A DNA stretch of 64,000 nt. Source: Iphione sp. A-MEVVRFRX5. Its lineage: Eukaryota. The stretch spans positions 89,404,001 to 89,468,000 of the forward strand of contig OZ320315.1 of assembly GCA_976226885.1 (NCBI GenBank), in the 5' to 3' direction. Below are positions 9,943-62,919 of the stretch, piece by piece; the first letter of the stretch is position 1; the number at the start of each line of letters is the position of its first letter. The translations under genes were made by a program, and so were the position numbers. The notes beneath the pieces were generated by a model. The model saw nothing but the letters and a program-made list of their open reading frames with translations. It made no database searches and was not told the DNA's origin.

Positions 9943-10136
9943 CATTACAACAAACAACCGCGTACCAGTGGAGACATTTATTACGAGAACACATAGGTAA
10001 ATAAACATTATCGATCAGTTCATCAACAGGTGTGTATTGTCAAGGTGTGTGTGCGCGGAGTGGCGAGCGTGAGCGGCGAGGGGTGAACATGTTTATCTGA
10101 GGTGTGTGTATGTGTGTGTGTGTCAGTGATTGCGCC
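9943..10136 (-). repeat. E1 repeat B2 (194 bp)
   Basis: Reads identical to 10265-10458; contains AATAAA on the minus strand (9977-9982). Confidence 0.97.
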
Positions 10137-10174
10137 CTACCGCGTAAAGCTTGTTGCTAGTTGGGTGGGTGGGC

Positions 10175-10268
10175 GGTAATCCAAACTGTCCGGCGGTTGA
10201 CCGCGAACTGAGTCACTGTTCGCGGCAGTGTAATGAAACCACGTGACCAACCGTCACGTGGGCCCATT
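10175..10268 (-). repeat. E1 repeat A2 (94 bp)
   Basis: Reads identical to 14691-14784. Confidence 0.97.
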
Positions 10269-10458
10269 ACAACAAACAACCGCGTACCAGTGGAGACATT
10301 TATTACGAGAACACATAGGTAAATAAACATTATCGATCAGTTCATCAACAGGTGTGTATTGTCAAGGTGTGTGTGCGCGGAGTGGCGAGCGTGAGCGGCG
10401 AGGGGTGAACATGTTTATCTGAGGTGTGTGTATGTGTGTGTGTGTCAGTGATTGCGCC
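10265..10458 (-). repeat. E1 repeat B1 (194 bp); shares CATT (10265-10268) with A2
   Basis: Reads identical to 9943-10136. Confidence 0.97.
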
Positions 10459-10470
10459 AAGGCAGTCTGT

Positions 10471-11364
10471 CTATCGTCTTTTAGTAAGATACCTCGCTGC
10501 TGCGCTCGAGCGCCAGTCCCCGCGAGCGACTATCTGCTGCCTCGGGACCCCTTGTGCCTGTGCGTGCCTGGCGCCCCCGTGCCGCAGCCCGTGAAGGGTG
10601 TGGCTATCGGGCGCCAGGCCCGCGGCCCCGACCGCGCGGCGCCAGGCCGGGCGCGCGTAGGACAGCGGAATGGGCGTCTGGGTGCCCTCGAAACACACAT
10701 AGGGCTGCTGGTGACTGGCTGACGGGTTCGCCTCAACCATGTCGTGGTGCGCGCGGAGTGGGCAGAGATCGTCGCCCGTGGCGCGGACCGTGATCTGCCG
10801 GGGGGTAGTGAAGAATTGCCGGGACTTAGACCACACAACGGTGAGGCGTAGCTCGTGCGGCCCGTCGGCGACGTGGGACCTCAGGAGCTGGCGGTACCTG
10901 TCGAAAGTGCTCACGTTCTGGGGGAGCAGGTTAGATTGGCGCAGCAGGGATGCGAACAGGATCAGGACCGCCGCGACCAGCGGGCGGGCCTGCGGGTCAC
11001 GCCTGAGGTGTGGAAGTATCAGGCGCAGCTTCTGTTCGGTGATAGGCAGGCGAGCTGTTGGCGCGGGTCTCGGAGTCATCTTAAGTGCTTGCAGCGCGTT
11101 GCGGACAAGAGGGGACCGCCAGGTGTCGACCGGTCTACCTTTATCCGCGAAGTGCGCCGTAAGGGCGCTGATGGTATTCGCCACACTCGCCGGGGTCGTC
11201 GTGTACGCCCTCTGCTCGATGAACGCGCAGAGGTGCTGGGGATCTGGCCTCCGATAGTCAACCCCGTACTTGGCGGAGAATGAAATGTAGGCGCGCAGGG
11301 CTGATGCCCTGTTCTTGAATGTACCTGGCCTCTTCGCGTGGCGTTGCCGTTCTTCTGCCGCCAC
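10471..11364 (-). CDS. E1 tyrosine recombinase (frame open from 11406; no AUG until about codon 96)
   Basis: Catalytic set SLLRQSN (R), WSKS (K), HGLRHGG (HxxR), RGDWRS (W), ARYL (Y). The track start is GTG. Confidence 0.95.
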   Translation of the reverse strand: MAAEERQRHAKRPGTFKNRASALRAYISFSAKYGVDYRRPDPQHLCAFIEQRAYTTTPASVANTISALTAHFADKGRPVDTWRSPLVRNALQALKMTPRPAPTARLPITEQKLRLILPHLRRDPQARPLVAAVLILFASLLRQSNLLPQNVSTFDRYRQLLRSHVADGPHELRLTVVWSKSRQFFTTPRQITVRATGDDLCPLRAHHDMVEANPSASHQQPYVCFEGTQTPIPLSYARPAWRRAVGAAGLAPDSHTLHGLRHGGARHAQAQGVPRQQIVARGDWRSSAAARYLTKRR

Positions 11365-11393
11365 CAGGAGGTCATTGTAGGCCGGGTCTGAAA

Positions 11394-13538
11394 TTATAGG
11401 TGGTATTTATAATCGTATGCCCAAGGTGGAACGTTGACGACTCGTAGGTTTTCGCTGTTGATGTATGACTGTGCTACGTTGTGGTGAGGGACTGACCGCG
11501 ACGCTCGGCTAAGTGCGTCGGGGATGATCATCTGGGCCCCGGGACGGTGCTCGGGTACCAGGAACGCGTGGTGGTGCTCAACATGGTACCAGATGGCTCT
11601 GGCGCAGGCTGCCAGTACGGGGTCCCGTGCGCGACCTGACGCTAGGACTTCGACTGTGGCGGCGTTGTCGCAGAGAAGCCTTACACGTTGGCCCACGTCA
11701 TCGTCTGTGATGAGGAGGCGGGCCGCGGCGAGGCAGTTTATTGCTTCCAATTGCGAAATGTGGTGACCCTCTGCGACGTCTTGTGGCCATTCGAAGCTGT
11801 AGCATGCGACGCCATCATGCGCCCCGGCACCATACAAGCAGGCGTCCGCTGCGATCGTCTTGTGGGGCGTGGCAGGCGGGAAGAATGATATGCCGTTGTG
11901 CGTCTCGGAGAAGTCGCGCAGCCAGCGCAGGTCCGCCCTAAAGTCTTGGTCGACCTCGATAAAGTCGGTGCCCTCTCGTAGCTTGCTCAGGATTCGCGCC
12001 ATAAACAACCTGGCGGCAGGAATCGCCTTCGCGATGTGGTTGATCTTGCCGACTATCGACTGCACTTGGCGCTTGGTCAGTTGCTGGTGGGTCATGGTGT
12101 CGCTGAACAATACTCTGTACTCGGCGAGCTTCGCTCGGGGTATCGCCAGGGTGGCTGTGATCGTGTCCACTCGTATGCCCAGCCAGGTGATTGCTGTTGC
12201 CGGGCCTTGGATCTTCTGTGTGGCGATTGTCAAGCCGAGGTCCTGGAGGAACGCAATGACGTGCTCGACTTGCTTCTTGGCCTGCGCGGCGTCGGGGGCC
12301 ACCAGCACGAGGTCATCCAAGTACATCAGTGCGTCAATGTGGTTCGTGTGTAGCTGGCGCAGGATGAACTCCGCCGCCTTCTGCATGACGGCGGCGCTCA
12401 AGCGGGCGCCAAACGGGAGGGCCGTGTCGATGTAGAATTTCCCGTCGACCTTCAGGCACAGCAGCGGCCAGTCAGCGGGGCACACTGAAAAGTGGCGGTA
12501 TGCCCGCTTGAGGTCAACCACCGCCATGCAGCAGGGAGGGTCGTAGTCTTGGATTCTTCGAACTAGGTCGGTGACTGTCGGGAGTGTGTGCGGGCGCTCT
12601 GCTCCATATATAACGCCCTTCTGCACGTACGCGTTGACTGCTCGGCCAGGCGGGTATGATAGGTCTACGATGACGCGTCGCGAGCCGTCTGCTTTGGGGC
12701 GTGTCATCAGCGGGGCAACCATGCACCACTCGTGGAACGGGGGCTGATCGTAGGGTCCCATAATTGCTCCGAGCCTAATCTCCTCTCTGATGTATTCGGC
12801 TATGGCTCGGGGGTGCGCCCGTGCCGAGGGGTGGTTAGTTGTGTCGGTACGTGAAACAGGGGGACCGGCGTAATGGATGGGAAAACCGTACCTTATGCCA
12901 TCCAGGATCAGCGTGTCATCGTCGTGGCCGGTCGCCGCATTGTCCCAGGCGCGATAGATTAAGGAGGTGTTGAGTGCCAGTCTGGCACCGAGGGCGTTGG
13001 GGTGGCCTAGCCTGGCCACGGTCCGGTAGGTGTTTTCGGCTCGCTGACCGCAGGCCGCTATCATGCGCGGCCATGTCGCTGCTCTGTGTTGTGCTAGTCT
13101 TGCGGAGAACCATGGCTGAGCTTCGCCCTCGGTTGGGTTCGACAGGTGCGTCGCGTTGGTGTATTGAGGGGCAGGGGAGGGTAGCGGTGAGCCGTAATCC
13201 GCGTAATCCTCTCCTGTCCCGCCGCACTCGCTGTCCTTGAGACCATTGTCTTTGGCCGGTGAGCTGGCGTGAGCGTTGTCGGGGGGCATTTGTAGGTCGT
13301 CGTCTTGGTCTGTTACATCATGGGCGGGCAAAGGCGTCTCGGGGGGCTGCCCGCTCGTTAATCCCTCGAGTGCGCGTTTTTTGGCTCGGTCCTTTCGTGG
13401 GTCTTCTCGCGTTGGTCTCTCTTGGGTCTCTCCTTGTTGTCTGGGCGTGAGGTCGTGGCCATTCTCGCCTTTCGTGCGCATTCGGTTGCTGAGTGCTGAC
13501 ATTCTCGGTTGCCTACGCCCATCCAGCACACTGCACAT
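11394..13538 (-). CDS. E1 pol: reverse transcriptase + RNase H (-1 frame relative to gag)
   Basis: VVDLKRAYRHF, ALPFG, YLDDL; RNase H AADAC/QLEAIN/LCDNA/PDALSR; pre-RT PNALGARL...GIRYGFPIHY domain typical of DIRS-order pol. Confidence 0.96.
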   Translation of the reverse strand: MCSVLDGRRQPRMSALSNRMRTKGENGHDLTPRQQGETQERPTREDPRKDRAKKRALEGLTSGQPPETPLPAHDVTDQDDDLQMPPDNAHASSPAKDNGLKDSECGGTGEDYADYGSPLPSPAPQYTNATHLSNPTEGEAQPWFSARLAQHRAATWPRMIAACGQRAENTYRTVARLGHPNALGARLALNTSLIYRAWDNAATGHDDDTLILDGIRYGFPIHYAGPPVSRTDTTNHPSARAHPRAIAEYIREEIRLGAIMGPYDQPPFHEWCMVAPLMTRPKADGSRRVIVDLSYPPGRAVNAYVQKGVIYGAERPHTLPTVTDLVRRIQDYDPPCCMAVVDLKRAYRHFSVCPADWPLLCLKVDGKFYIDTALPFGARLSAAVMQKAAEFILRQLHTNHIDALMYLDDLVLVAPDAAQAKKQVEHVIAFLQDLGLTIATQKIQGPATAITWLGIRVDTITATLAIPRAKLAEYRVLFSDTMTHQQLTKRQVQSIVGKINHIAKAIPAARLFMARILSKLREGTDFIEVDQDFRADLRWLRDFSETHNGISFFPPATPHKTIAADACLYGAGAHDGVACYSFEWPQDVAEGHHISQLEAINCLAAARLLITDDDVGQRVRLLCDNAATVEVLASGRARDPVLAACARAIWYHVEHHHAFLVPEHRPGAQMIIPDALSRASRSVPHHNVAQSYINSENLRVVNVPPWAYDYKYHL

Positions 13539-14671
13539 CGATGGTGAAACGTGGTACCTCCTTCACGATGCTTGTGCGCCTCTGGGCAAGTGGCCATGTT
13601 GTAGGCCAGGCAAGGGACCTCCGGGGGAACTGTCTCTTTCTGGCCTTTGCAGAGGGCGAGTTGTGTCCGCATCTGACTAATTACTGCCTCGTCCTTCCAC
13701 CTCAATGTTCCCTGATTAATCTGGTGGATAACTGTTAGCGACCAGCGCCTAACGTTTTTCCACCTGTGTGTCAGGGAATCCTGTAGTAGCTCTTCCGCGT
13801 GGCAGAGCTGGTACCAGAGCGTCGTCCTCGGGGGGCCCGACAGCCGAATCATCGCGATCAGTCCAATGGCATGTTCAATGGGAGACAAATCGTCAGGGGA
13901 CTCCCTATCTTTAATCTCTTCTGCGAGGTCGAATAGCGTCATGTACGGTTTCCAGAAGGGCACCATTTTCTCTTTTACCGGATCATACACTTGCTTACCT
14001 CGCGTTCGGCGAAATGAAGTGGTAGTCTCGGCCTGCATCGCTTTGTCGACGTACGCCATTGATTCGCGTGGGATGCGTCTGCGTCGGCGGGTGGAGGTTT
14101 CGTCCTCCGATGAGGACGTCCATTCGGAGAGGTCCGTGGAGTCGTCCTCGGACAGGGAGGGGGACGTGGTCGTGTGCCTGCGCCTTACGCGCCGAGAGCG
14201 TTTGTGTACTGCATGAACCGGGCTGCGGCGCTTCACTACTACCTTCTGCTTCGTGCGTCGTCTGCGGCCGGCGTTCTCCCTTTCGCGGCGAGTCTGGTCG
14301 CGCTGTCGGGTTTTCTTCGGTGTCTCGACGTCCCCTGGGTCTTCCGGGCCTTGTGGCACTGGATCGGTGTTGTTGTTTCCCTGCGGTGCTGGCTGGGGCT
14401 GCGGATCCTGCGGCGGAGCTGGATCTTGGTTTCCTTTGGGCTTCGGAGTGTCGTTCTTGCTCTTGCTCCTGCGGCGATCCTTCTTCTGGTGGAGGGCCAG
14501 GAGGATCTCGATGCCCGTCTCCAATCATGCGATCCGTTCCTCTAGCTGGGCGGCCGGTGCCGGGTCTCCGGGGGCCGGGTTCTCCGGCTGAGAACCGCCT
14601 TGGTCGCCGTTACCGCTGGGCCCCGGTACGGGGTCCTCGGGATTTCCTGGATTAGCGTTGTCCATAGACAT
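13358..14671 (-). CDS. E1 gag-like ORF1, interrupted by one in-frame TGA at 14525-14527
   Basis: ATG at 14671 gives MSMDNANPGNPEDP...QLEERIA*LETGIEILL in frame with track ORF 13358..14524 (TTG start); C-terminal Cys/His finger CLAYNMATC...HHRCAVC...HSATEC. Confidence 0.88.
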
Positions 14672-14690
14672 AGCGAGGGCAGGCCTGCAA

Positions 14691-14784
14691 GGTAATCCAA
14701 ACTGTCCGGCGGTTGACCGCGAACTGAGTCACTGTTCGCGGCAGTGTAATGAAACCACGTGACCAACCGTCACGTGGGCCCATT
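14691..14784 (-). repeat. E1 repeat A1 (5' end of element)
   Basis: Reads identical to 10175-10268. Confidence 0.97.
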
Positions 14785-14805: not shown

Positions 14806-14954
14806 NNNNNNNNNNNNNNNNNNNNNNNNNNNNNNNNNNNNNNNNNNNNNNNNNNNNNNNNNNNNNNNNNNNNNNNNNNNNNNNNNNNNNNNNNNNNNNN
14901 NNNNNNNNNNNNNNNNNNNNNNNNNNNNNNNNNNNNNNNNNNNNNNNNNNNNNN
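14806..14954. other. Assembly gap (149 N)
   Basis: Run of N starting 21 bp outside the E1 end. Confidence 1.
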
Positions 14955-34675: not shown

Positions 34676-35653
34676 CAACCCCAAAGAAGAAGAAAAAACT
34701 GAATCAAAATTAAGTTTATCCTCCAGAGATGGGGAGAGATAGCAAAACACAGCGTCACTCCTCCACCCACCTCTCTCTTTGATCACATGAAGAGGAACAC
34801 CTAACCTAGCCATATGAGAAGCACCTCCTCGTCTGAGCGAATGAGAAGTTAGTCTCCCCTCAACACCAGCTACCATACACAACCTCTTCAACTCCTTATT
34901 GAACCATGAATACTCCAAAAAACACAACTTTCCATCTTCAATAAAGGAGAAAATTGGGAGATTTTTCGACACTCTTACAAATGAAAAAAGTAGACCCAAC
35001 CAATGAACTAGGCAAAAAATTCTACTACTACTTGAAGACACAACTATATCCCTAGGGGATTCACCAAACTGATCAGTCTTCGACCTCCGAATATGAATAA
35101 TCACACGGTCAGCAAAAATCTCAATATCACTCCTCTTCAGCCCTGAATCATCCATAAATTGATTCTTCCTCAACAAACTACGGAAGCCAAATAGAATAGC
35201 ACACCAAAACACCAACTGCCTCACCTTAGAGAGGTCCAAAACGCCATAAATCTTAACCAAATCCGAGATGGAAAACCCTTTGGATTTCAAACTCTTGCCC
35301 ATATCAATCCTCTTCAACCCACTAATCATCCATTTTATATTAAAATCCTGAACATCTGGAGGGGAGAGAAAACGTTTCCTATGCTCAAACACCAGACCAC
35401 TCAAATAGTTTGAAACCGAGCTTGGGCGCATAACCTGAGATAAGTAAGCGCAATATAATCTCAATTGGAACTGACTACATGGATAAGCTGAGAAACAATA
35501 CTTCTTGCAGAAAGACAAATAAACTTCTTCTTGTCTCTTCCTCGTCCTCACGGTATTGTCAGAGTACGCCATCTCCCTCAACATGACCATTCTCGATATC
35601 AGGCTCCCAACCGGATCTGTAAGACAAGAGCACCTCCTTACAACAAGCTTCAT
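34670..35653 (-). CDS. E2 tyrosine recombinase
   Basis: SLLRKNQ (R), RSKTDQ (K), SHSLRRGGA (HxxR), RGGWRS (W), FCYL (Y); overlaps pol by 95 nt. Confidence 0.96.
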   Translation of the reverse strand: MKLVVRRCSCLTDPVGSLISRMVMLREMAYSDNTVRTRKRQEEVYLSFCKKYCFSAYPCSQFQLRLYCAYLSQVMRPSSVSNYLSGLVFEHRKRFLSPPDVQDFNIKWMISGLKRIDMGKSLKSKGFSISDLVKIYGVLDLSKVRQLVFWCAILFGFRSLLRKNQFMDDSGLKRSDIEIFADRVIIHIRRSKTDQFGESPRDIVVSSSSSRIFCLVHWLGLLFSFVRVSKNLPIFSFIEDGKLCFLEYSWFNKELKRLCMVAGVEGRLTSHSLRRGGASHMARLGVPLHVIKERGGWRSDAVFCYLSPSLEDKLNFDSVFSSSLGLA

Positions 35654-37544
35654 TCACCCACGACGTCCACCTCTCATCGTCAACAAAGAACTTATCATCA
35701 CGCCTCGACAAGACATCAGCTACCACGTTATCTTTCGTATTAATATACTCTGACGTGATTCTAATGTTGTAAATGGTGCAAACCCAAAAAATCTCCTTCA
35801 ACCACCAGAGACACATCTTGTTAGAGCTTCTTCCTGATCTCAGCATATACAACACCTGAGTATTGTCCACCATAAACAACACATTGCTATTCCTCCACAA
35901 GTCCTTCCACCTCTTCAGAGCAACAACCACCGGCCAAAGTTCGTAAACATTGATATTCCGCTCAATCAGGTCCATCAATGGTCTACTCTCACAATGGCTA
36001 CATCCAAAAACTTTCAAGGCACCAGACCAATCACCCAAAAACCAGTCGTTCTTATATGAACCACCAAAACCCTTAAACGAGGAATCGGTATAACAGACAT
36101 GCTCAACCAAACCTGGGTCAATAATTTTACCGACCCCATTGAACAATTTAGAGAACACCAACCACCAGTTCAGATCATCTAAGACCAAATCGCTCACTCC
36201 AACCTTTTTGTTGTTTTTGGGCAAGGACTCTACAAAATCATACATACTTCTACAAAAGGTGCGCCCGCCCAGAATGATTGTGGCGCAATGAGATAGGAAA
36301 CCAGCAATCTTCTCACCTTCTTTCCTGCAAATCTTTTTTGAAGAAGTAACCTTGGTCAACATATCCCTCATTTTATCTAACTTTCCTTCAGGGAGCCTCA
36401 TAGTCATCTTTGAACTGTCTATCTCAATGCCCAAGAAAATACATTTCCTGCTTGGTTCAGTTACTTTCTTCCAAGAAACGTCAAAGCCCAAAGACTCAAT
36501 AACACCTGTGAGAATCCTCCTGTTGCTCAGACACGAATCATACGATTCACCACACACAATGAAATCATCAAGATAATTCACTACCCTACTATCCGCTAAC
36601 TGAGCATATTCCTGCACAACAAAATTGGATAACTGGGTAAAGATGTAAGGCGCGCATTTCAAACCAAAGGTTAATGAGTTACTCACGAAGAACCTCCTAC
36701 GGCCATCCAGATACCACGAAAAACCCTGATATTTTCTGCAGTCTTCTCTAACACTCACTGACCTATAAGCATTACTTATGTCCACCACACTGAGAAAGTC
36801 ACCCTCTTTTAGAAACGTACAAACGTCACCAACTGATCTATATGAGAAGTCTTCATATAATCCCTCCATGAAGTAATTAATAGAAACTCCTACAGGCATT
36901 GAACAATCAGTTATTGGCCTCAGAGAGCCATCACTTTTTGGAACCCCCCCCATAGCATGCACACATTGGGGGACATCTTCCACTTCACTCACAAAACCCT
37001 GTTTGATTTCCTTCGATATTTTCTCCGACATCTCTGACAAAAAGGGCTCAACCTCGATAGACTTGTAATTCCTGCAATAGTACTTGCCTTCGAAGTTATC
37101 ATTAACAATCTGAAAACCGCTACAAACGCCATTCCAGATAAAAACACGCCTGCTGGGATCCATAAGTCCAAAACAACACCCTCTAAAAAATCTACAAGGC
37201 CTAAGTTTGGACATAACACCCCCAATAATGTGTTTACAATCACAGTTACCATCAAGACATGTCTTATAAATTCTGATAACGTTATTACTGTTAAACATCA
37301 CATATAACAGTTTGTCATCATCAACTATGGGTGATCCTGCGGGTACACCCCCTTCAATGTCAATCAACAACCATGCATTTCCAACATTATTTTCACAATG
37401 GTAAGCATATAAGAACATGTTAGCATCCTCAACTAAAAGATTTTTAGCATCGCTATACAAAGGTTCATCAAGCCTTTCTAAGCTAGGGAAAAACAACACG
37501 TCCAAGCCTACTGCGTCATTGTAACTTTGTTGTACGTTACATAG
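35559..37544 (-). CDS. E2 pol: RT + RNase H, in the same frame as gag and directly after its TGA
   Basis: VVDISNAYRSV, LTFG, YLDDF; RNase H YTDSS/VYELWP/MVDNT/VADVLSR; frame open from 37544; the track start is TTG and the first AUG is at 37418. Confidence 0.95.
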   Translation of the reverse strand, partial: LCNVQQSYNDAVGLDVLFFPSLERLDEPLYSDAKNLLVEDANMFLYAYHCENNVGNAWLLIDIEGGVPAGSPIVDDDKLLYVMFNSNNVIRIYKTCLDGNCDCKHIIGGVMSKLRPCRFFRGCCFGLMDPSRRVFIWNGVCSGFQIVNDNFEGKYYCRNYKSIEVEPFLSEMSEKISKEIKQGFVSEVEDVPQCVHAMGGVPKSDGSLRPITDCSMPVGVSINYFMEGLYEDFSYRSVGDVCTFLKEGDFLSVVDISNAYRSVSVREDCRKYQGFSWYLDGRRRFFVSNSLTFGLKCAPYIFTQLSNFVVQEYAQLADSRVVNYLDDFIVCGESYDSCLSNRRILTGVIESLGFDVSWKKVTEPSRKCIFLGIEIDSSKMTMRLPEGKLDKMRDMLTKVTSSKKICRKEGEKIAGFLSHCATIILGGRTFCRSMYDFVESLPKNNKKVGVSDLVLDDLNWWLVFSKLFNGVGKIIDPGLVEHVCYTDSSFKGFGGSYKNDWFLGDWSGALKVFGCSHCESRPLMDLIERNINVYELWPVVVALKRWKDLWRNSNVLFMVDNTQVLYMLRSGRSSNKMCLWWLKEIFWVCTIYNIRITSEYINTKDNVVADVLSRRDDKFFVDDERWTSWVNEACCKEVLLSYRSGWEPDIENGHVEGDGVL

Positions 37545-38495
37545 TCATTTCTTACCACCCTTTGAGTCCTTGGATTTATCTGCGTTGTTGACGTTCGCTG
37601 GGCACTCATAGGCTTTATGATCTGAACTTCCACACACAAGACACGCATGTTTAAAATTACAACCACTATCATGGCAAGTGCCATTGTTAAACCTATAGCA
37701 CACCTTATCTGAACGCTTGAAAACATCGCTATGTTTCTTACTCTTCGGCCGTTGACTACCACTCTTTTGCGTATTACCGCTCAGCATCATATCAAAACAA
37801 AAATGCGAACGAATAAGCTCGTCGTCACCGAACTTAAAGGCACTTGTACCTTTCTTTTCTGCTCTTTTCCTCATGTCCTTATCATAGTCAATGAAGGAGC
37901 TGTCCTTGTACACATTTTTGATACGTTTCTCCAGGAGGAATATCAAATGGTCCAAGTAGCCAGAAATGTCATGGCCCTTTTTCAGGTGTCGCTGCACCAA
38001 ACGCACGGAACCATACATCAACTGGTCAAAACTGTCAACACTTTTAACCTTGGCAGCCGCACGCACGTTAAACAATTTCTTCTTACCCTTGGACCTCCTC
38101 TTTTTCTGCTTATCATCATCATCCGAGTCTGAATAGCTCAAAGAAGACACGTCGTCCTGGCTTGTTGACATATCGCCACCACGGTCCTTGGAAACTAGGC
38201 CACTTCCGCCCGCATCCTTTGACAACGTAGAATTGACGCCACCATTAGCCAGAAGCAGAGATATCATGTCCTCGAGTTTGCCCATTCGTTGAGACAAACC
38301 ACCATTACCATTACCATTGTCATCTGCACCATTTGACACATCAACCATCTTCGATGAATCAGTCACAATTTCTGGAAAATCAGAAAACACACGAGACTCC
38401 ACCGAAGCACCACTACCATTTTCCACGGATAATCTGCATTTCTTGCCTACAGGAGCAGAATGTTTCCTGTTACATTTCGAACAATGTCTACCCAT
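37545..38495 (-). CDS. E2 gag-like ORF1
   Basis: N-terminal CSKCNRKH...C knuckle; C-terminal CYRFNNGTC...CNFKHACLVCGSSDH...C finger; likely ATG at 38495 (frame open to 38618 inside A1). Confidence 0.9.
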   Translation of the reverse strand: MGRHCSKCNRKHSAPVGKKCRLSVENGSGASVESRVFSDFPEIVTDSSKMVDVSNGADDNGNGNGGLSQRMGKLEDMISLLLANGGVNSTLSKDAGGSGLVSKDRGGDMSTSQDDVSSLSYSDSDDDDKQKKRRSKGKKKLFNVRAAAKVKSVDSFDQLMYGSVRLVQRHLKKGHDISGYLDHLIFLLEKRIKNVYKDSSFIDYDKDMRKRAEKKGTSAFKFGDDELIRSHFCFDMMLSGNTQKSGSQRPKSKKHSDVFKRSDKVCYRFNNGTCHDSGCNFKHACLVCGSSDHKAYECPANVNNADKSKDSKGGKK

Positions 38496-38567
38496 GTTGA
38501 AAGGCGAAATTACTGCCAGAAATCCGTTGGAATAGACAAGCACCTCGGAACCAGGTCCGTACCATTC

Positions 38568-38715
38568 AAAATTTTCAATCTGAATGACGGTTGTTATCCC
38601 TAGCATTCTATAGTACACACCTGTTACTTAGGACGTCACCCAGTGACTAAGGTGACGCTACCACACATCTGTAGTTGCTATATCAATACCCAAATAAATG
38701 CCTTATTTGGTATAT
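38568..38715 (-). repeat. E2 repeat A1 (5' end of element)
   Basis: Reads identical to 34477-34624. Confidence 0.97.
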
Positions 38716-44400: not shown

Positions 44401-44744
44401 CCATGTTATCCAATCACTTATCCTGGATATGGTTGTCATCACTACATGCCAATAACATGCTTACATTATGAATACATCGCATTCATTCTAATCAACCAAC
44501 ACTCGCTGTTCAAAATTTGAGTGAAGTGGTCATGTTCTCCATGATGAGGAAATACTGTAACAAGTGTAAGGTTAGCCATCTTTAATCTGTAGACAAAGAT
44601 TGCCTGTGAAAGGATAAACTAATAGTAAGAATGATTGTGATACACCGCAGGAAATTCGTGCTGATAAACCTGACACGGAATCAAGGCTCTCTTAAATGGA
44701 GTCACTGGTAAAGGTCCTATTGGCTGGAAAACCGTGTTCTACAG

Positions 44745-44921
44745 ATAGAAAGAAACGAGCTAACAGAGGTAATTATCAGCTCTCCATCATGCTGCAGTGA
44801 CGACCGGTCTACAGATTCTGAGATGGAGGAAACTGAGTTCCAGAGAAAGGGGAGCAAGAAGAATGATTTGCAGTGTTTTGATGGAAATCTGGCTGATGTT
44901 AGTGGTCCTAGTGACATCCAA
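44745..44921 (+). CDS. Possible isolated host exon (59 codons, phase 0-0)
   Basis: TTCTACAG| acceptor, open frame IERNELTEVIISSPSCCSDDRSTDSEMEETEFQRKG..., weak CAA|GTAAAA donor; no homology recognised. Confidence 0.25.
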
Positions 44922-44941
44922 GTAAAACTACAGATTCGTCA

Positions 44942-45290
44942 GTGGGGAGTTAGCTCAGTGGTAAAGCACTGATCCACTGATTGAAAGGTTGCAGGTTCAA
45001 TCCCAAGCTTGGAACTCTCGATCAAGACCAGACAGATTTACTGTAGTCCCAACCCAGAGTGATCTCCAACTCATAAAAAGGCCATGGGTGTATAGGATTC
45101 TGTCCCTTATGCACAAAAAGACCCCAGAAAGCTATTCGAAGTACGAGTAGAGGGCAACCCCATGTATTCTGGTCTCTCAATTCTCAATAATAGATGGTAG
45201 TATTCTATCCCAGGAGGATATGGAAGTACCCTGTCTTGATGATAGGTGAATATATTCCTGGATAAAGATACAATGAAGTGAAATGAAATA
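44942..45290 (+). mobile_element. tRNA-derived SINE, copy 2
   Basis: A box TAGCTCAGTGG (44951), B box GGTTCAATCC (44994-45003); colinear with copy 1. Confidence 0.88.
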
Positions 45291-46921
45291 GACATTGAGA
45301 TGTATCATAAAGTCACTGTTAAATCAGTTCTGAATGAGTATGTTATCTCACCCCGCGATGAAGGCAATGACAGTTATTTTACCTGAGCCCTTGAATGAAA
45401 TATGTTGATTGTATTCAAGGCAAATGTAATAGACCGATTGTGTAACATGTGGCGACAAACGAATAAACGGATAGAGATGATATACTTTTAACACATACTT
45501 TTAACCATTTGTGGAAACAACTGATTGAGCTGCCGAAGGAACCAGTTAAATACATGTGATAATGATGCTGAAAACCGAACGTTTCTATGATACATATGAT
45601 CAGTGAATCAGTATACTATAGGTGGTGTAGTATGTACTTTTAAACCCTGCCACGCTATATTAGCCTCAGTTAAAGCCCTGTGCATAAGGCTCATGTGAAA
45701 ATTATTAGGTTACGATTATCTGAAGGGTTCAAAATTGAAGATGAAAATTAGTACTTTTTATGAGTGTGAGAACTATGAATCCCCCTTGGCTGATAATTTC
45801 ATGGAACAAATGAATGTTAAGGTAATACATAAGTTATTTAAAGGTGATATTTCAGAATGTGCTGTTAAGCCACATTGTATTAATGCTTGAGGTGGAATCA
45901 GTAAGAGTGATAGGTCTTTACGGTCTGTCACTTATTGTTCATTGTCTATGGAAAAAGGTGTTAATAATTTCTTTAAGTCTATCCATGACACAATGAGCTA
46001 CAAACCAATCAGTTAACATCTGTGACTATCTGCAGGGTGATGGATTTATGTCAGTCATTGATATCAAACATACGCGTAGATGTGTTTAGGAATATCGAAG
46101 CTATAGAGAATGGTTTCCTCGTGGTTAGTGACAGCAAACAGGAATGCCATTATTATTAGAATTTTATGATTGACGTGATCTTTTAAATTCATGAGTACAC
46201 AAATTGATAGATAACAGTGGAAATCAAACTTCTAATAGAACAAATTATCATTACTAAACAGAAATTATATACGTTGGAATTTAGACGTTTTTGGTATAAA
46301 GAGAATCGGAAACTTACTGCTTTATTTGCTCACTGCTGCACTTTTTAAAAGAAGGGCAAGCCTTCAGTTGAAGTTCACTGATTCATTATTTTCTTAGGAA
46401 AGAAAATTGCCAAGTGGTATTTTTTATCGTCTGAATCGGTATAGTTTTTATTCATTCTGATAGGAAATATTTTCGTCAGAAGAAATGAACAGGATGTGAT
46501 TACAACAAACTTAACACTGAATATACTTGAAGCTTTTTTTTTAGAGATGATTGATTTGTGGGTAAATGGATGAAAATGACATCCTTTTTAGAAAGTTTGA
46601 ATTAGCACATTGAGTAAAAGCCTAAATTTGATCATGATAATCACATAAACGTCTATGGATTGTGGCCTTTTGAGAAGGCACTGAAACGTTGAGGATATCA
46701 CTAAGAGAAAAGAGTGGTTGTAGAGTATATATGTGTAAAGTGTCTCTCGTCAGCAGACCAGATGGCTTTGGTGAAATAGAGGATGTCCACACAGAATATG
46801 CGCTAGTTGTGCTCAATTCCATTTTCGGATGAGAACTGTCTTTATTCAGAAAACTTGGGCCCTTATATACAGAGACTGGCTCTAAAATTAGCCACAGAAC
46901 ACCTTAAAAATAGTAACACCC

Positions 46922-58247: not shown

Positions 58248-58439
58248 ATGCTAATCACAGTGACAAACAACGTGATGTGCAGAAAGAAGGTCTTGAAAAT
58301 AATTATTAATATTGTTAGGATGATTGGCATGGAATCAAATTGTGAAAAGGACCGTTCAAATTTCCAAGGCGAAAACCACTTAGGAAGGCTCCTCGCAGAA
58401 ATTCGGGATAGGGCAAAACAACAATCAGTCCGTCTGTAA
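58248..58439 (+). pseudogene. NADAR (YbiA-like) domain C-terminal remnant
   Basis: IG-x11-FQGENHLGRLLAEIR matches the family C-terminal motif WGxG...WxGxNxLGxxLxxxR; N-terminal part not recognisable. Confidence 0.5.
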
Positions 58440-58467
58440 AGCCGTTCTACACCGACACATAGGACAA

Positions 58468-59160
58468 ATGGCGTACTGCAAACCGGTATTGCTGAATACC
58501 AAAATTCACTGTTTTACTGACTCGCATGGGCGAGACTTGGAATATGACATCTGGAAGCAAGGCCACCAAATCGAAGTGCATAGCTTCCCAGGGCGCCGAC
58601 TGTACCAAGTCTCGAGTAAAGCAACCCAAGCCTCATTTGAGGTAAAACCGAAGCTGACCATCATATGGGCAGGTAGCAACAATCTTACCAAGCTTGACAG
58701 GTATTACCAGCTACCAACCAAAGAAACTATCCGCCAGGTACACGTTGCCACAGACTCTACATATGATTTGTTTACTCGATTCCAAATTGAACTTTATGAT
58801 GCGGAAAACATGCTTCTACAATACCTAAAGCCTTGCACGTTCGCATTTGCGACAATTACTGGAACAGATATTTTGGTTTATAATTGCAACCAGGGGAATT
58901 ATCTAATAAACCCTAACATCAAAGATTATTATCAGTTCGTGATAGACGAGGCGATTTTCAAAATTAACAACGAAATAACCGCGGTGAACGCACGTAGAGA
59001 TATGCCAACACCGTGGATAGGTGGTATTATTCACTCGAGAAACAATCGCGTTAATAACCATAAATACTTCAAATTAATAGACGGATGTCATTTCAATGTA
59101 ACGGCAAGATATCAAGCCGCGAAGGAGGTGATCAAATTTGTCACCAAATGCGCTATGTAA
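58468..59160 (+). CDS. SGNH/GDSL esterase-like LINE ORF1 protein (230 aa)
   Basis: Blocks FTDSHGR (S), SFPG (G), WAGSNN (N), LIDGCHF (DxxH) in canonical order. Confidence 0.85.
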   Translation: MAYCKPVLLNTKIHCFTDSHGRDLEYDIWKQGHQIEVHSFPGRRLYQVSSKATQASFEVKPKLTIIWAGSNNLTKLDRYYQLPTKETIRQVHVATDSTYDLFTRFQIELYDAENMLLQYLKPCTFAFATITGTDILVYNCNQGNYLINPNIKDYYQFVIDEAIFKINNEITAVNARRDMPTPWIGGIIHSRNNRVNNHKYFKLIDGCHFNVTARYQAAKEVIKFVTKCAM

Positions 59161-60057
59161 GATGCTTCAGCAAATTGAAAACTCATTTGAGTACTTTTTC
59201 ACTTGACTACACCCAAACTCATTGGAGTTTTCCAGATACCTAAGAAATATGTAGCAAAACTACATATGCCTGTCGTAATTAGCCTACGACTTAGAATCGC
59301 TTATCAGTAAAATCTGATGATTATTTAAACATGTATCTATTGTATTAGGGAATTAGCTACTGCAGGATATACCAACTGACCTTTACCGATTGTCAAAGAA
59401 TGTACTAGAATATGTTAGTACAAACCACATATTCTTACTGCACTAGATGGAGAATTAAGAGAAATGTTTGTCATGACGTCTACTGTTTGCCTACTGCTTG
59501 TCTTCACTAACATTGTTACCTGAACTAACGTACTAAAAACCAGAATGTTGTTTGAATACAATACGCGAGTAATCAAAAACTGATTCCATCTTGGATAGTA
59601 CATCCTTGTCTTGTTGAAGATTCACTACACAGCAGTAGTACCTGCTATTCTCGTTGGAGAATTGTGATGATTATTATCATTGTCAATAATGTTGTTGTTT
59701 GATCGAAATAAATACCAGTACCATTATTCGCAAGACTGATAATCCGTTACTCGCTAATCAATAGTATACTTCTACTCAATAATGAATGTATATTTAGATG
59801 CAGTTCCCTCACTCCCCACCCACTACCTTGTAGATTCTACTGTACCATGTGCAGTCACTATCAACAAGGCGTGCCTTCTGCGGCCCATCTACTCAAATAT
59901 TTTTTCCAAAATTGTCCATCAGGTTTAATACTTTATTCATTAACGATCCCATATCCAGCGAGGAAAATATCTCTTGATCACCCTCCATTTGCCAAACCCA
60001 ACGATAGTTCATTAAGGAATTTGGGAGGAAAGATGAGAGAATGTCCTAGCTTTTCTA

Positions 60058-62919
60058 ATGGCTAACCAAAAACAACTACAGGGCACCCTAAAAATATTTT
60101 ACATTAATATACAAAGTATACTCAACAAGCTAGACATTCTTAAAATACAGATATTGTCAGACAAGTATGACCTAATATTTTTAACTGAGACCTGGTTACA
60201 TAATGACATATTAGACGGACTATTAGATATTGAAGTGTACAACCTCGTGAGACTGGACAGAGCAACGAGAACAAAATCCATGAAAACCAAGAGAGGAGGA
60301 GGACTATGCATATATTACAAAACCAACTTACCAATTAATACGGCAATATATAGTAATCTATCTGGATCAACTGACGAATATGAATGTATGTGGATCAAAA
60401 TAGAAGGTCAAATAAACCATTGTATAGGTCTACTTTACCGTCCTCCCCAGGGCAAAGTGGAAGAGACATTAGTTTACCTATCAAATTGTCTATCGAACAT
60501 AAGTTCATCCGTTATTCTCATTGGAGATTTTAATATAGATTATTCAAAAAATGACAAGCGGAAACAAAGCTTGCTAGATTTTGAAGCTAAATTCCGGCTA
60601 TCCCAAATCATCAACATCCCAACACGTGGAAGCAATCGTGCCAAATCAATTATTGACCATGTGTACATCCGAACAAAATTAAAGGTATCAACTAGTATAA
60701 TTAAAAAGAATATCAGTGATCATCACGGGATAACCACAAAACTTACAATACCAGAGATGAAAAAATATGACCAAAAAGTTGCTGAATATAGACCATGGAA
60801 TGACAAAATTGCAATAAAATGCATCGAACGTATAAATAATGTATTGTGGAAAAAATTCTTTGAAGAGGATGATATAGAATTTCTGTGGCATTTTCTTCGA
60901 ATCACATTACAGGAAGCACTCGATCACATTTGCCCTAGACAGCGAAAAAGTATCAAGGAATACTCGATTCCATGGATCACAAGTGAGATAATAACAGTAA
61001 TAAACAGAAAACACAGGCACCTTAGGCAATACCATCAGTCTAAAGAACGGAAATACTTACTATTGGCAAATAAAACAAACAACGTTGTCAAATCTCTTAT
61101 AAGAAGAAATAAATCCAAATACTTCGAGGGAATGCTAAACAACAACCCAAGCCCTCGGGACTATTGGAAAAGGCTCAATCAACTATTTAAGACAAAGAAT
61201 AAAAAGGAAAATAAAATAGCAATTTGCGATGATACAGGGAATGAACTCACAGATTACAACTCCTGTAATTATATTAATACCTTTTTTGCGAGTATAGGAA
61301 GTAAGCAACTCGACGAAACGGAGGCTACTTACCTATCGGTTACCACCCCGTTTGAGAAGGAACCTAGTCAATTACCAATTAAATTAGCATCACAGGAGGA
61401 AATAAAAGAAATAATAAAAGGGATTAATACCAATAAACCATCTGGAATATATTGGTGTACAAATAAAATATTGGTAGACATGCTCGAGAACATACCGGAA
61501 CAATTAACATACCTGATAAATTGCTCACTGAGAAAAGGAAAAGTGCCTAACGACTGGAAAACAGGGATAATCACGCCAATTTTTAAAAAAGGGGACCGAA
61601 AACAAGCTGGTAATTATAGACCAATTACAATATTGCCCACATTTTCAAAGATTATCGAGCGAGTAGTACATACTAGAATATACCAACACCTTGAGGAACA
61701 CCATCTCTTACATACGCAACAATATGGGTTCAGAAAAGACAAGTCAACAGTAAAAGCTGGGGTAGCAGTAACTGACATTATCTATGAAAACCTAAATAAT
61801 GGTCTATTAACTGGCATAGTTCTAGTTGACTATGCAAAGGCATTCGACAGTATTGATCACAAAATAATCTTAAACAAACTAAATTGGTATGGTTTAGAAG
61901 CATATAGAAAATGGCTTGAAAGTTACTTATCAAATCGGACGCAGCAAACTAAAGCAAACAATTGTATCTCTGATCTGGCCACAGTAACAACAGGGGTACC
62001 CCAAGGAAGTATCTTGGGGCCCCTGTTGTTCCTACTGTACATAAATGACTCTTTTACTGCAATCAAGCGGTCTAACTGCATACTATACGCAGATGACACT
62101 ATACTGCTGGCAACGGGAGATAACCCAAAAAGCCTAAATGACATTTTGCAGAGCGACCTACAAAACCTACAAGAATGGTGCAAAATAAATCGTTTGAAAA
62201 TTAACCCTACCAAAACAGAAGCAATATTGTTCTGTAATAAGCACAGTAAGTACAAAAATGCCCATCTGGACTTGCATCTAGACAATAATTTGATCAAAAA
62301 TGTAGACTCTGTGAGATACTTAGGATTGAATTTAGATAAACACATGAGTCAGAAAGGACAAATAGAAGGAATAATCAAAAAGATCAAACCACTTGTTTTC
62401 ATGTTTAATAAAACCCGACCATACATGAACACGCAAACAGCTAGTCGAATTCTAAAGGCATTTATTTTACCCCATATCGAATATGGAGCAGTACTATTGA
62501 ACAAACAAGACAACCCCCTTTTCCAGAATCTGATGAGAATGTTCGACAGAGTAGTGAGGGTAAGTTTCAAGGATTGGACTAGTAACACATTAGACCTATA
62601 CAAGAAATTAAACTTACCAACTTTAGACCTACGCTGTGACTACCACCTAGCACTACTGGCAGTTAAAAGCGACTATCTTTGCGAAATTAAGACAACCAAT
62701 TCAGGGAAGACTAGAAATGACTTTAGACTTACGAAGAAAAGCCCTAAACCCAAGCGTGAAATATACAAACAGTCATGTAAATATAACTTGATTAGAGTAT
62801 GGAACGACCTACCTCTCTCACTAAAGCTTCGTCCTATTCCAAAAGACAATATACTGAAGAAACACTTGAAGCGTCACTTTATGTCCAAGATCCAAAAAGA
62901 GAACTGGAGGGTGCCCTGA
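60058..62919 (+). CDS. LINE ORF2: AP endonuclease + reverse transcriptase (953 aa, intact)
   Basis: APE: INIQS, LTETW, GGG, GDFN, IDH, SDH. RT: NYRPITIL, QYGFR, DYAKAFD, GVPQGSILGP, YADD. C-terminal WNDLP. Confidence 0.97.
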   Translation: MANQKQLQGTLKIFYINIQSILNKLDILKIQILSDKYDLIFLTETWLHNDILDGLLDIEVYNLVRLDRATRTKSMKTKRGGGLCIYYKTNLPINTAIYSNLSGSTDEYECMWIKIEGQINHCIGLLYRPPQGKVEETLVYLSNCLSNISSSVILIGDFNIDYSKNDKRKQSLLDFEAKFRLSQIINIPTRGSNRAKSIIDHVYIRTKLKVSTSIIKKNISDHHGITTKLTIPEMKKYDQKVAEYRPWNDKIAIKCIERINNVLWKKFFEEDDIEFLWHFLRITLQEALDHICPRQRKSIKEYSIPWITSEIITVINRKHRHLRQYHQSKERKYLLLANKTNNVVKSLIRRNKSKYFEGMLNNNPSPRDYWKRLNQLFKTKNKKENKIAICDDTGNELTDYNSCNYINTFFASIGSKQLDETEATYLSVTTPFEKEPSQLPIKLASQEEIKEIIKGINTNKPSGIYWCTNKILVDMLENIPEQLTYLINCSLRKGKVPNDWKTGIITPIFKKGDRKQAGNYRPITILPTFSKIIERVVHTRIYQHLEEHHLLHTQQYGFRKDKSTVKAGVAVTDIIYENLNNGLLTGIVLVDYAKAFDSIDHKIILNKLNWYGLEAYRKWLESYLSNRTQQTKANNCISDLATVTTGVPQGSILGPLLFLLYINDSFTAIKRSNCILYADDTILLATGDNPKSLNDILQSDLQNLQEWCKINRLKINPTKTEAILFCNKHSKYKNAHLDLHLDNNLIKNVDSVRYLGLNLDKHMSQKGQIEGIIKKIKPLVFMFNKTRPYMNTQTASRILKAFILPHIEYGAVLLNKQDNPLFQNLMRMFDRVVRVSFKDWTSNTLDLYKKLNLPTLDLRCDYHLALLAVKSDYLCEIKTTNSGKTRNDFRLTKKSPKPKREIYKQSCKYNLIRVWNDLPLSLKLRPIPKDNILKKHLKRHFMSKIQKENWRVP

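Follow-up and report, generated by a model that had tools for sequence, protein, structure and literature searches.

We describe a Ngaro-type tyrosine-recombinase retrotransposon, E2, on the minus strand of a 64,000-nucleotide stretch of Iphione sp. DNA (hereafter the window), in which gag and pol share one reading frame and are separated by a single TGA. Programmed readthrough of this UGA, directed by its local sequence context, is the probable source of the Gag-Pol protein. Most ribosomes would end Gag at UGA-CUA and a minority would read on through the UGA, resulting in a Gag-Pol fusion of ~978 residues, while the recombinase is predicted to come from a different RNA, one in which mid-gag is spliced to a site immediately ahead of the recombinase frame. 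The readthrough signal is likely to be local, consisting of the lysine-codon adenines before the stop and the CUA after it rather than the small stem that follows; we infer both this role of the lysine codon and, by analogy, a readthrough rate of a few percent.

E2, a Ngaro-type element whose gag and pol share a frame

The direct repeats of E2 follow the layout A1-[ORFs]-B1A2B2, with the internal repeats 3' of the recombinase (Table 1). The Gag-like ORF1 product has an N-terminal C2HC-like motif and C-terminal CCCH and CCHC zinc knuckles, which match the retroviral nucleocapsid profile (E 6e-4), followed by an 18-aa tail ending in Lys-Lys. Its start, MGxxxS, presumably represents a myristoylation pattern. 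An in-frame AUG is also present inside repeat A1 at 38606 (minus strand), 37 codons 5' of the likely gag start at 38495, and three short out-of-frame AUGs lie in this region. The pol frame encodes, in order, a variable linker of ~89 codons, a Cys-rich module, a reverse transcriptase (RT) with a YLDD motif (PF00078, RVT_1, E 1.8e-16) and the conserved acidic residues D487, E535, D560 and D610, which we assign to RNase H by their motifs, the region being without a Pfam RNase H match. Downstream of pol and in the same orientation, the recombinase frame matches PF00589 (E 4.1e-9) and contains the HxxR motif in translation. No methyltransferase was found in pol, where RVT_1 was the sole Pfam match at E up to 0.1 and which ends ~50 residues past D610.

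Table 1. Coordinates of the retrotransposon features in the window
Feature	Coordinates	Strand	Description
E2, Ngaro-type tyrosine-recombinase retrotransposon	34400..38715	-	4316 nt, three open frames
Split direct repeat A1	38568..38715	-	148 nt, identical to A2 (100%)
Split direct repeat A2	34477..34624	-	148 nt
Split direct repeat B1	34620..34675	-	56 nt, identical to B2 (100%)
Split direct repeat B2	34400..34455	-	56 nt
gag (ORF1), including TGA	37545..38495	-	316 aa from AUG at 38495, coding 38495-37548
pol (ORF2), including stop	35559..37544	-	661 codons (37544-35562), same frame as gag
Tyrosine recombinase frame (ORF3)	34670..35653	-	overlaps pol end; PF00589
Predicted readthrough site AAG AAA TGA CTA	37542..37553	-	TGA at 37547-37545
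6-bp stem, 10-nt loop (TGTAAC-N10-GTTACA)	37520..37541	-	3-nt spacer from stop
Possible 78-nt intron	37478..37555	-	donor 8 nt before TGA, acceptor 67 nt after
Predicted 2470-nt intron	35617..38086	-	phase-1 donor 38086 mid-gag, phase-1 acceptor 35617 before recombinase
E1, second Ngaro-type element, GC-rich	9943..14784	-	repeats 94 and 194 nt, identical pairs

These features fit the structural definition of Ngaro elements (PMC4157794, PMC8547959), members of the order DIRS that share with E2 the split repeats, Gag-like ORF1, RT/RNase H, tyrosine recombinase and lack of a methyltransferase. E2 is a Ngaro-type element by this structural definition, its RT having been compared with that of its relatives. 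A PAT-like identity is ruled out by the absence of a methyltransferase domain after RNase H (definition in PMC4157794). Unlike E2, the Ngaro elements described from Xenopus have overlapping frames (PMC9210276). Protein atlas matches for E2 fell in eukaryotic clusters only, with a recognition score under the atlas threshold. Because its repeats are identical and its three frames are open, the sequence points to a young copy.

The second Ngaro-type element of the window, E1, shares 22% Pol identity with E2 and handles its junction differently: gag ends in TAA, and an A AAA AAC heptamer (13382-13376) precedes pol, which is in the -1 frame, in agreement with the contrast to an E1 frameshift drawn in the preliminary description. 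E1 gag also contains an in-frame TGA in a TGA-TTG context (14527-14525, minus strand), 48 codons past the first AUG (14671); lying far from the gag end, it is likely a lesion in that copy. A run of 149 Ns (14806-14954) lies just outside the E1 5' repeat. Elsewhere in the window, a decayed remnant of a third element (44700-46090, plus strand) matches E2 pol in fragments at 29-37% identity and has no readable junction. At 58384-62919 (plus strand), a 258-codon frame lies 5' of a 960-codon endonuclease-RT frame; its motifs resemble those of SGNH hydrolases, although it is without a Pfam match, and the unit is probably a LINE with an esterase ORF1. Together with the microsatellites of the window, this LINE suggests that the host is an animal.

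The stop at the end of gag

As originally read, the minus strand runs AAG AAA TGA CTA TGT AAC at the end of gag, with pol open from the next codon and the first in-frame AUG at codon 43 (position 37418). Past the stop, the +1 frame closes within 12 codons and the -1 frame within 3, and only the 0 frame enters Pol. A UGA followed by CUA or CGG, with a long open frame beyond, characterizes known readthrough sites, and E2 shares its stop and next codon with those of alphaviruses and of the mammalian genes AQP4 and LDHB (PMC3159437, PMC4359377). UGA-CUA alone gives 0.6-2.3% readthrough in human (HeLa) cells (PMC4359377). E2 differs from the alphavirus sites in having U rather than G at +7 and a stem of 6 bp after 3 nt rather than one of 10-12 bp after 8-12 nt.

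Unlike E2, murine leukaemia virus (MuLV) and Candida Tca2 carry a DDE integrase and a protease. Like E2, both have gag and pol in a common frame with one stop between them; their Pol is supplied by a minority product (PMC2194720). The MuLV signal consists of UAG, an 8-nt spacer and a pseudoknot, in contrast to UGA-CUA without a supported structure in E2, and the similar-looking gag-UGA-pol junction of Tca2 gave no readthrough in yeast (PMC2194720).

The stem starting right after CUA had been proposed as an aid to readthrough. It is present and forms part of the minimum-energy fold, but its suggested role is not supported: the stem is weak, begins too near the stop and recurs in 0 of 3 relatives tested. 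Stimulatory 3' stems have 10-14 bp after a spacer of 7-12 nt (PMC3159437), and E2 has no stem of at least 10 bp at such a distance; the one it has, 3 nt from the stop, likely falls within the stretch covered by the ribosome. The region was not more stable than shuffled sequences (z of +0.69 at 48 nt, +0.73 at 78 nt, +0.43 at 118 nt and -1.14 at 148 nt). A perfect 6-bp stem started within +1 to +15 in 4.9% of 5000 shuffles and exactly at +4 in 0.4%, so that the E2 stem is only marginally above chance. A search for long-range duplexes in E2 at spans of 150, 300 and 800 nt found none better than controls. The relative L001 alone (positions 180-295) has a candidate long-range stem resembling the alphavirus stimulators, which begins 8 nt after the TGA and encloses a loop of ~75 nt; 6 of 300 shuffles folded as low, and against control sites (4 of 123 as low at a span of 150 nt) the signal weakened at longer spans.

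The ends of related Gag proteins bear on whether the E2 stop is a regular feature. None of the best 150 of 406 Gag relatives ran into Pol, and none of the best 120 of 277 Pol relatives (38-46% identity) carried Gag. The median tail was 10 residues in the 119 of those 150 Gags whose last knuckle is canonical. Lysine was the terminal residue in 91 of 126 Gags with a tail of 4-30 aa (counted with a slightly wider pattern than that used for the median tail), compared to 246 of 1146 other tail positions (21%). The sample consists of cluster representatives at 50% identity, which are still kin, and the very small p value overstates the evidence. Readthrough is promoted when adenines occupy positions -1 and -2 (PMC3159437), a 5' effect that the lysine bias fits; the bias could also reflect a protein-level need.

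A look-up of 30 clusters yielded two fused records, and both a zinc knuckle and an RT motif were found in 2 of the 345 proteins compared. In the P0289 family, one record reads Lys-Trp-Ser into Pol and four sister Gags stop at that lysine; in P0334, one record reads Lys-Trp-Asn into Pol and one sister Gag stops there. Because the fused records continue where sister Gags stop at the same lysine, these families appear to share the gag and pol frame too. The simplest reading is a single in-frame stop that was called Trp by a table-4 gene model or is TGG in one copy; a TGACTGG junction like that of the relative L003, in which pol would lie in +1 and those copies would have suffered a short deletion, is less likely. 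Neither of these two protein records has Leu after the Trp, Ser following it in one and Asn in the other, so the CUR context would not be universal.

The fused records are also what can be said for the view that the Gag-Pol frame is normally continuous and that the E2 TGA arose in it by nonsense mutation, marking a dead copy. We regard this as very improbable, and the stop is almost certainly not a lesion: it falls where Gags of the family terminate, 18 residues beyond the final knuckle; the fused records are lone members of clusters whose other Gags stop; neither a long Gag-fusion protein search nor an alignment of 68 Gags, both weak tests, found a fused representative; and the E2 repeats are 100% identical, with three frames otherwise open. 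The Trp at the stop position of the two fused records could also suggest that the host reads UGA as sense, making gag and pol one gene. We reject this reading, given that the six long frames of the window (3297 codons, 51 TGG, 82 TGY) are without an internal TGA, that three of the six end in TGA and that the Trp is explained by the gene model or single-copy TGG noted above.

Gag-pol junctions in relatives and other routes to Pol

One metagenome scan for DNA of relatives gave nine loci (L001-L009), of which four have a readable gag end, E1 being the fifth junction. L002 and L009, without a junction, and L006-L008, three near-identical decayed copies, were dropped from the junction counts; L007, the decayed copy that was read in detail, has TGACTA 10 codons past the last knuckle, one base off its frame. 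L001 (40% Pol identity to E2) reads GGG TGA CTG and L005 (33%) reads AAA TGA CTA, both with pol in frame; in L001, 177 codons are open ahead of the conserved core and the frame breaks further on in RT. L003 reads AAG TGA CTG (1432-1446) with pol in +1 and the 0 frame shut after 3 codons; this junction, behind which lies a tandem duplication of ~28 codons, is a candidate for a +1 shift at a slow stop or for an indel in that copy. L004 reads CGT TGA TTT with pol in +1, and a pol-frame AUG 8 nt before the gag TGA (1377-1388) would suit termination-reinitiation. Excluding E2, TGA-CTR was found in three of the five readable junctions and in frame in two of five, with chance probabilities of ~5e-5 and ~3e-4, respectively, if the elements are treated as independent.

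This comparison, together with related Gags that stop at the same place, supports the proposal that E2 Gag-Pol arises by readthrough, apart from the assistance by the stem-loop. Judged from their junctions, plain readthrough cannot serve E1 (TAA, -1), L004 (TGA-TTT, +1) or L003 (TGA-CTG, +1). The few DNA junctions, from five other elements, and the lack of support for a 3' structure in E2 may be held against readthrough. A quick Pol tree without bootstrap, built from 7 labelled sequences and one in three of the other 119 Pols (47 rows in all), placed E2, L001 and P0022 in one large clade (support 96), L005 with L003 and L004 (82), and E1 on a long branch; clustering of frame type on it did not exceed that in shuffles. 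Scans of viral contigs and prokaryote genomes with the same patterns gave no match.

The main rival to readthrough is a 78-nt intron whose excision would delete the TGA and leave gag and pol fused in frame; in a variant, the mid-gag donor described below could share its acceptor. In E2 the donor is number 7 among 371 GT sites and the acceptor number 10 among 305 AG sites, both in phase 1, the pair outscores all 73 control positions in E2 pol, its excision would cost non-conserved codons only, and E2 apparently already uses splicing for its recombinase. These scores rest on a rough splice-site matrix, however, and a higher-scoring AG 5 nt upstream of the acceptor is out of frame. Such a pair is not conserved, with controls as high in 33 of 69 cases in L001, 10 of 51 in L003 and 19 of 25 in L004, and the best pair in L005 (matched by 1 of 51 controls) would excise Pol residues that are almost invariant. 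A Gly-Lys tail often gives GTAAG by codon chance, and the intron leaves the common TGA-CTR unexplained. We consider this route unlikely. The TGAC as a branch point was dropped, the AG 20 nt on being without a pyrimidine tract.

Pol might instead be made as a separate protein, through reinitiation, a shorter RNA that begins at the codon-43 AUG or a non-canonical bypass such as has been proposed for Tca2. Conserved Pol residues begin only near codon 90, downstream of the AUG at 37418, L001 has an AUG at codon 3, the L004 AUG overlaps the gag end, and the Tca2 junction, without readthrough in yeast, held a minor promoter (PMC2194720). Five out-of-frame AUGs come earlier in E2, however, and neither L005 nor the P0289 family has a usable AUG: L005 would be unable to reinitiate because its first in-frame Met is residue 303, after the RT motifs, and in the P0289 family the first Met comes 195 codons on, past conserved motifs, which makes a full Pol from an AUG impossible. 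From the positions of these codons, reinitiation at an AUG could serve E2, L001 and P0334, but L005 and the P0289 family are without this route. Separate synthesis also leaves the shared frame and TGA-CTR unexplained, and we judge it improbable as the source of E2 Pol.

A predicted Gag-recombinase splice and its implications

Sequences resembling splice sites in matching phase 1 predict a Gag-recombinase mRNA in E2 and its relatives. Scored with the same rough matrix, a phase-1 donor occurs 500-641 nt before the gag stop in five of five elements; it is the top GT site in E1, L003, L004 and L005 and stands fifth among 371 in E2. All four elements that have a recombinase core carry a phase-1 acceptor just 5' of it, which is the best of its region in E2, E1 and L005 and second best in L003. 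E1 thus carries the same predicted pair, and no Met precedes the conserved core in its recombinase frame. In 74 of 94 Pol tails, the terminal Cys-Cys is followed by a residue pair that would fit the acceptor, compared to 636 of 2400 control windows; this pattern was picked after the Pol tails had been viewed. The spliced E2 product, the N-terminal part of Gag joined to the recombinase, would be 451 aa long. Drosophila copia similarly obtains several products from one element by regulated splicing (PMC2194720), although there splicing sets the ratio of Gag to Gag-Pol, whereas the splice predicted in E2 supplies the recombinase.

Taken together, these observations allow a tentative proposal, to which we give somewhat less than even weight, that a large, unannotated Ngaro clade makes three products from one transcription unit: Gag ending at Lys-UGA, Gag-Pol by recoding at that site and Gag(N)-recombinase by a conserved splice. 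Under this proposal, recoding would be readthrough in most lineages and a +1 shift in some, such as that of L003. A term search of main texts found neither an in-frame leaky stop nor a spliced Gag-recombinase in Ngaro or DIRS elements in PMC3783388, PMC6681497, PMC9210276, PMC7192593, PMC3266345, PMC4157794, PMC8547959, PMC13517186 or PMC5009743 (first 300,000 characters); prior mention is possible in the founding Ngaro papers, the reviews by Goodwin, Poulter and Butler, the 2003 recoding survey, Repbase or supplements.

In the portions of the literature searched, the expression of the frames after gag in DIRS-order elements is unexplained. If true, the three-product program would account for expression of the second and third frames of tyrosine-recombinase retrotransposons. 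For annotators, a conserved leaky stop would be a warning against counting stop-bearing copies like E2 as dead. The predicted splice would account for production of the recombinase and would join it to the Gag N-terminus, which may affect target choice because ORF1 appears to set the insertion preference of Ngaro elements, as described for Cafeteria (PMC8547959). A conserved leaky stop would, in addition, extend programmed readthrough beyond retroviruses and a few LTR elements to a retrotransposon order whose integration chemistry differs.
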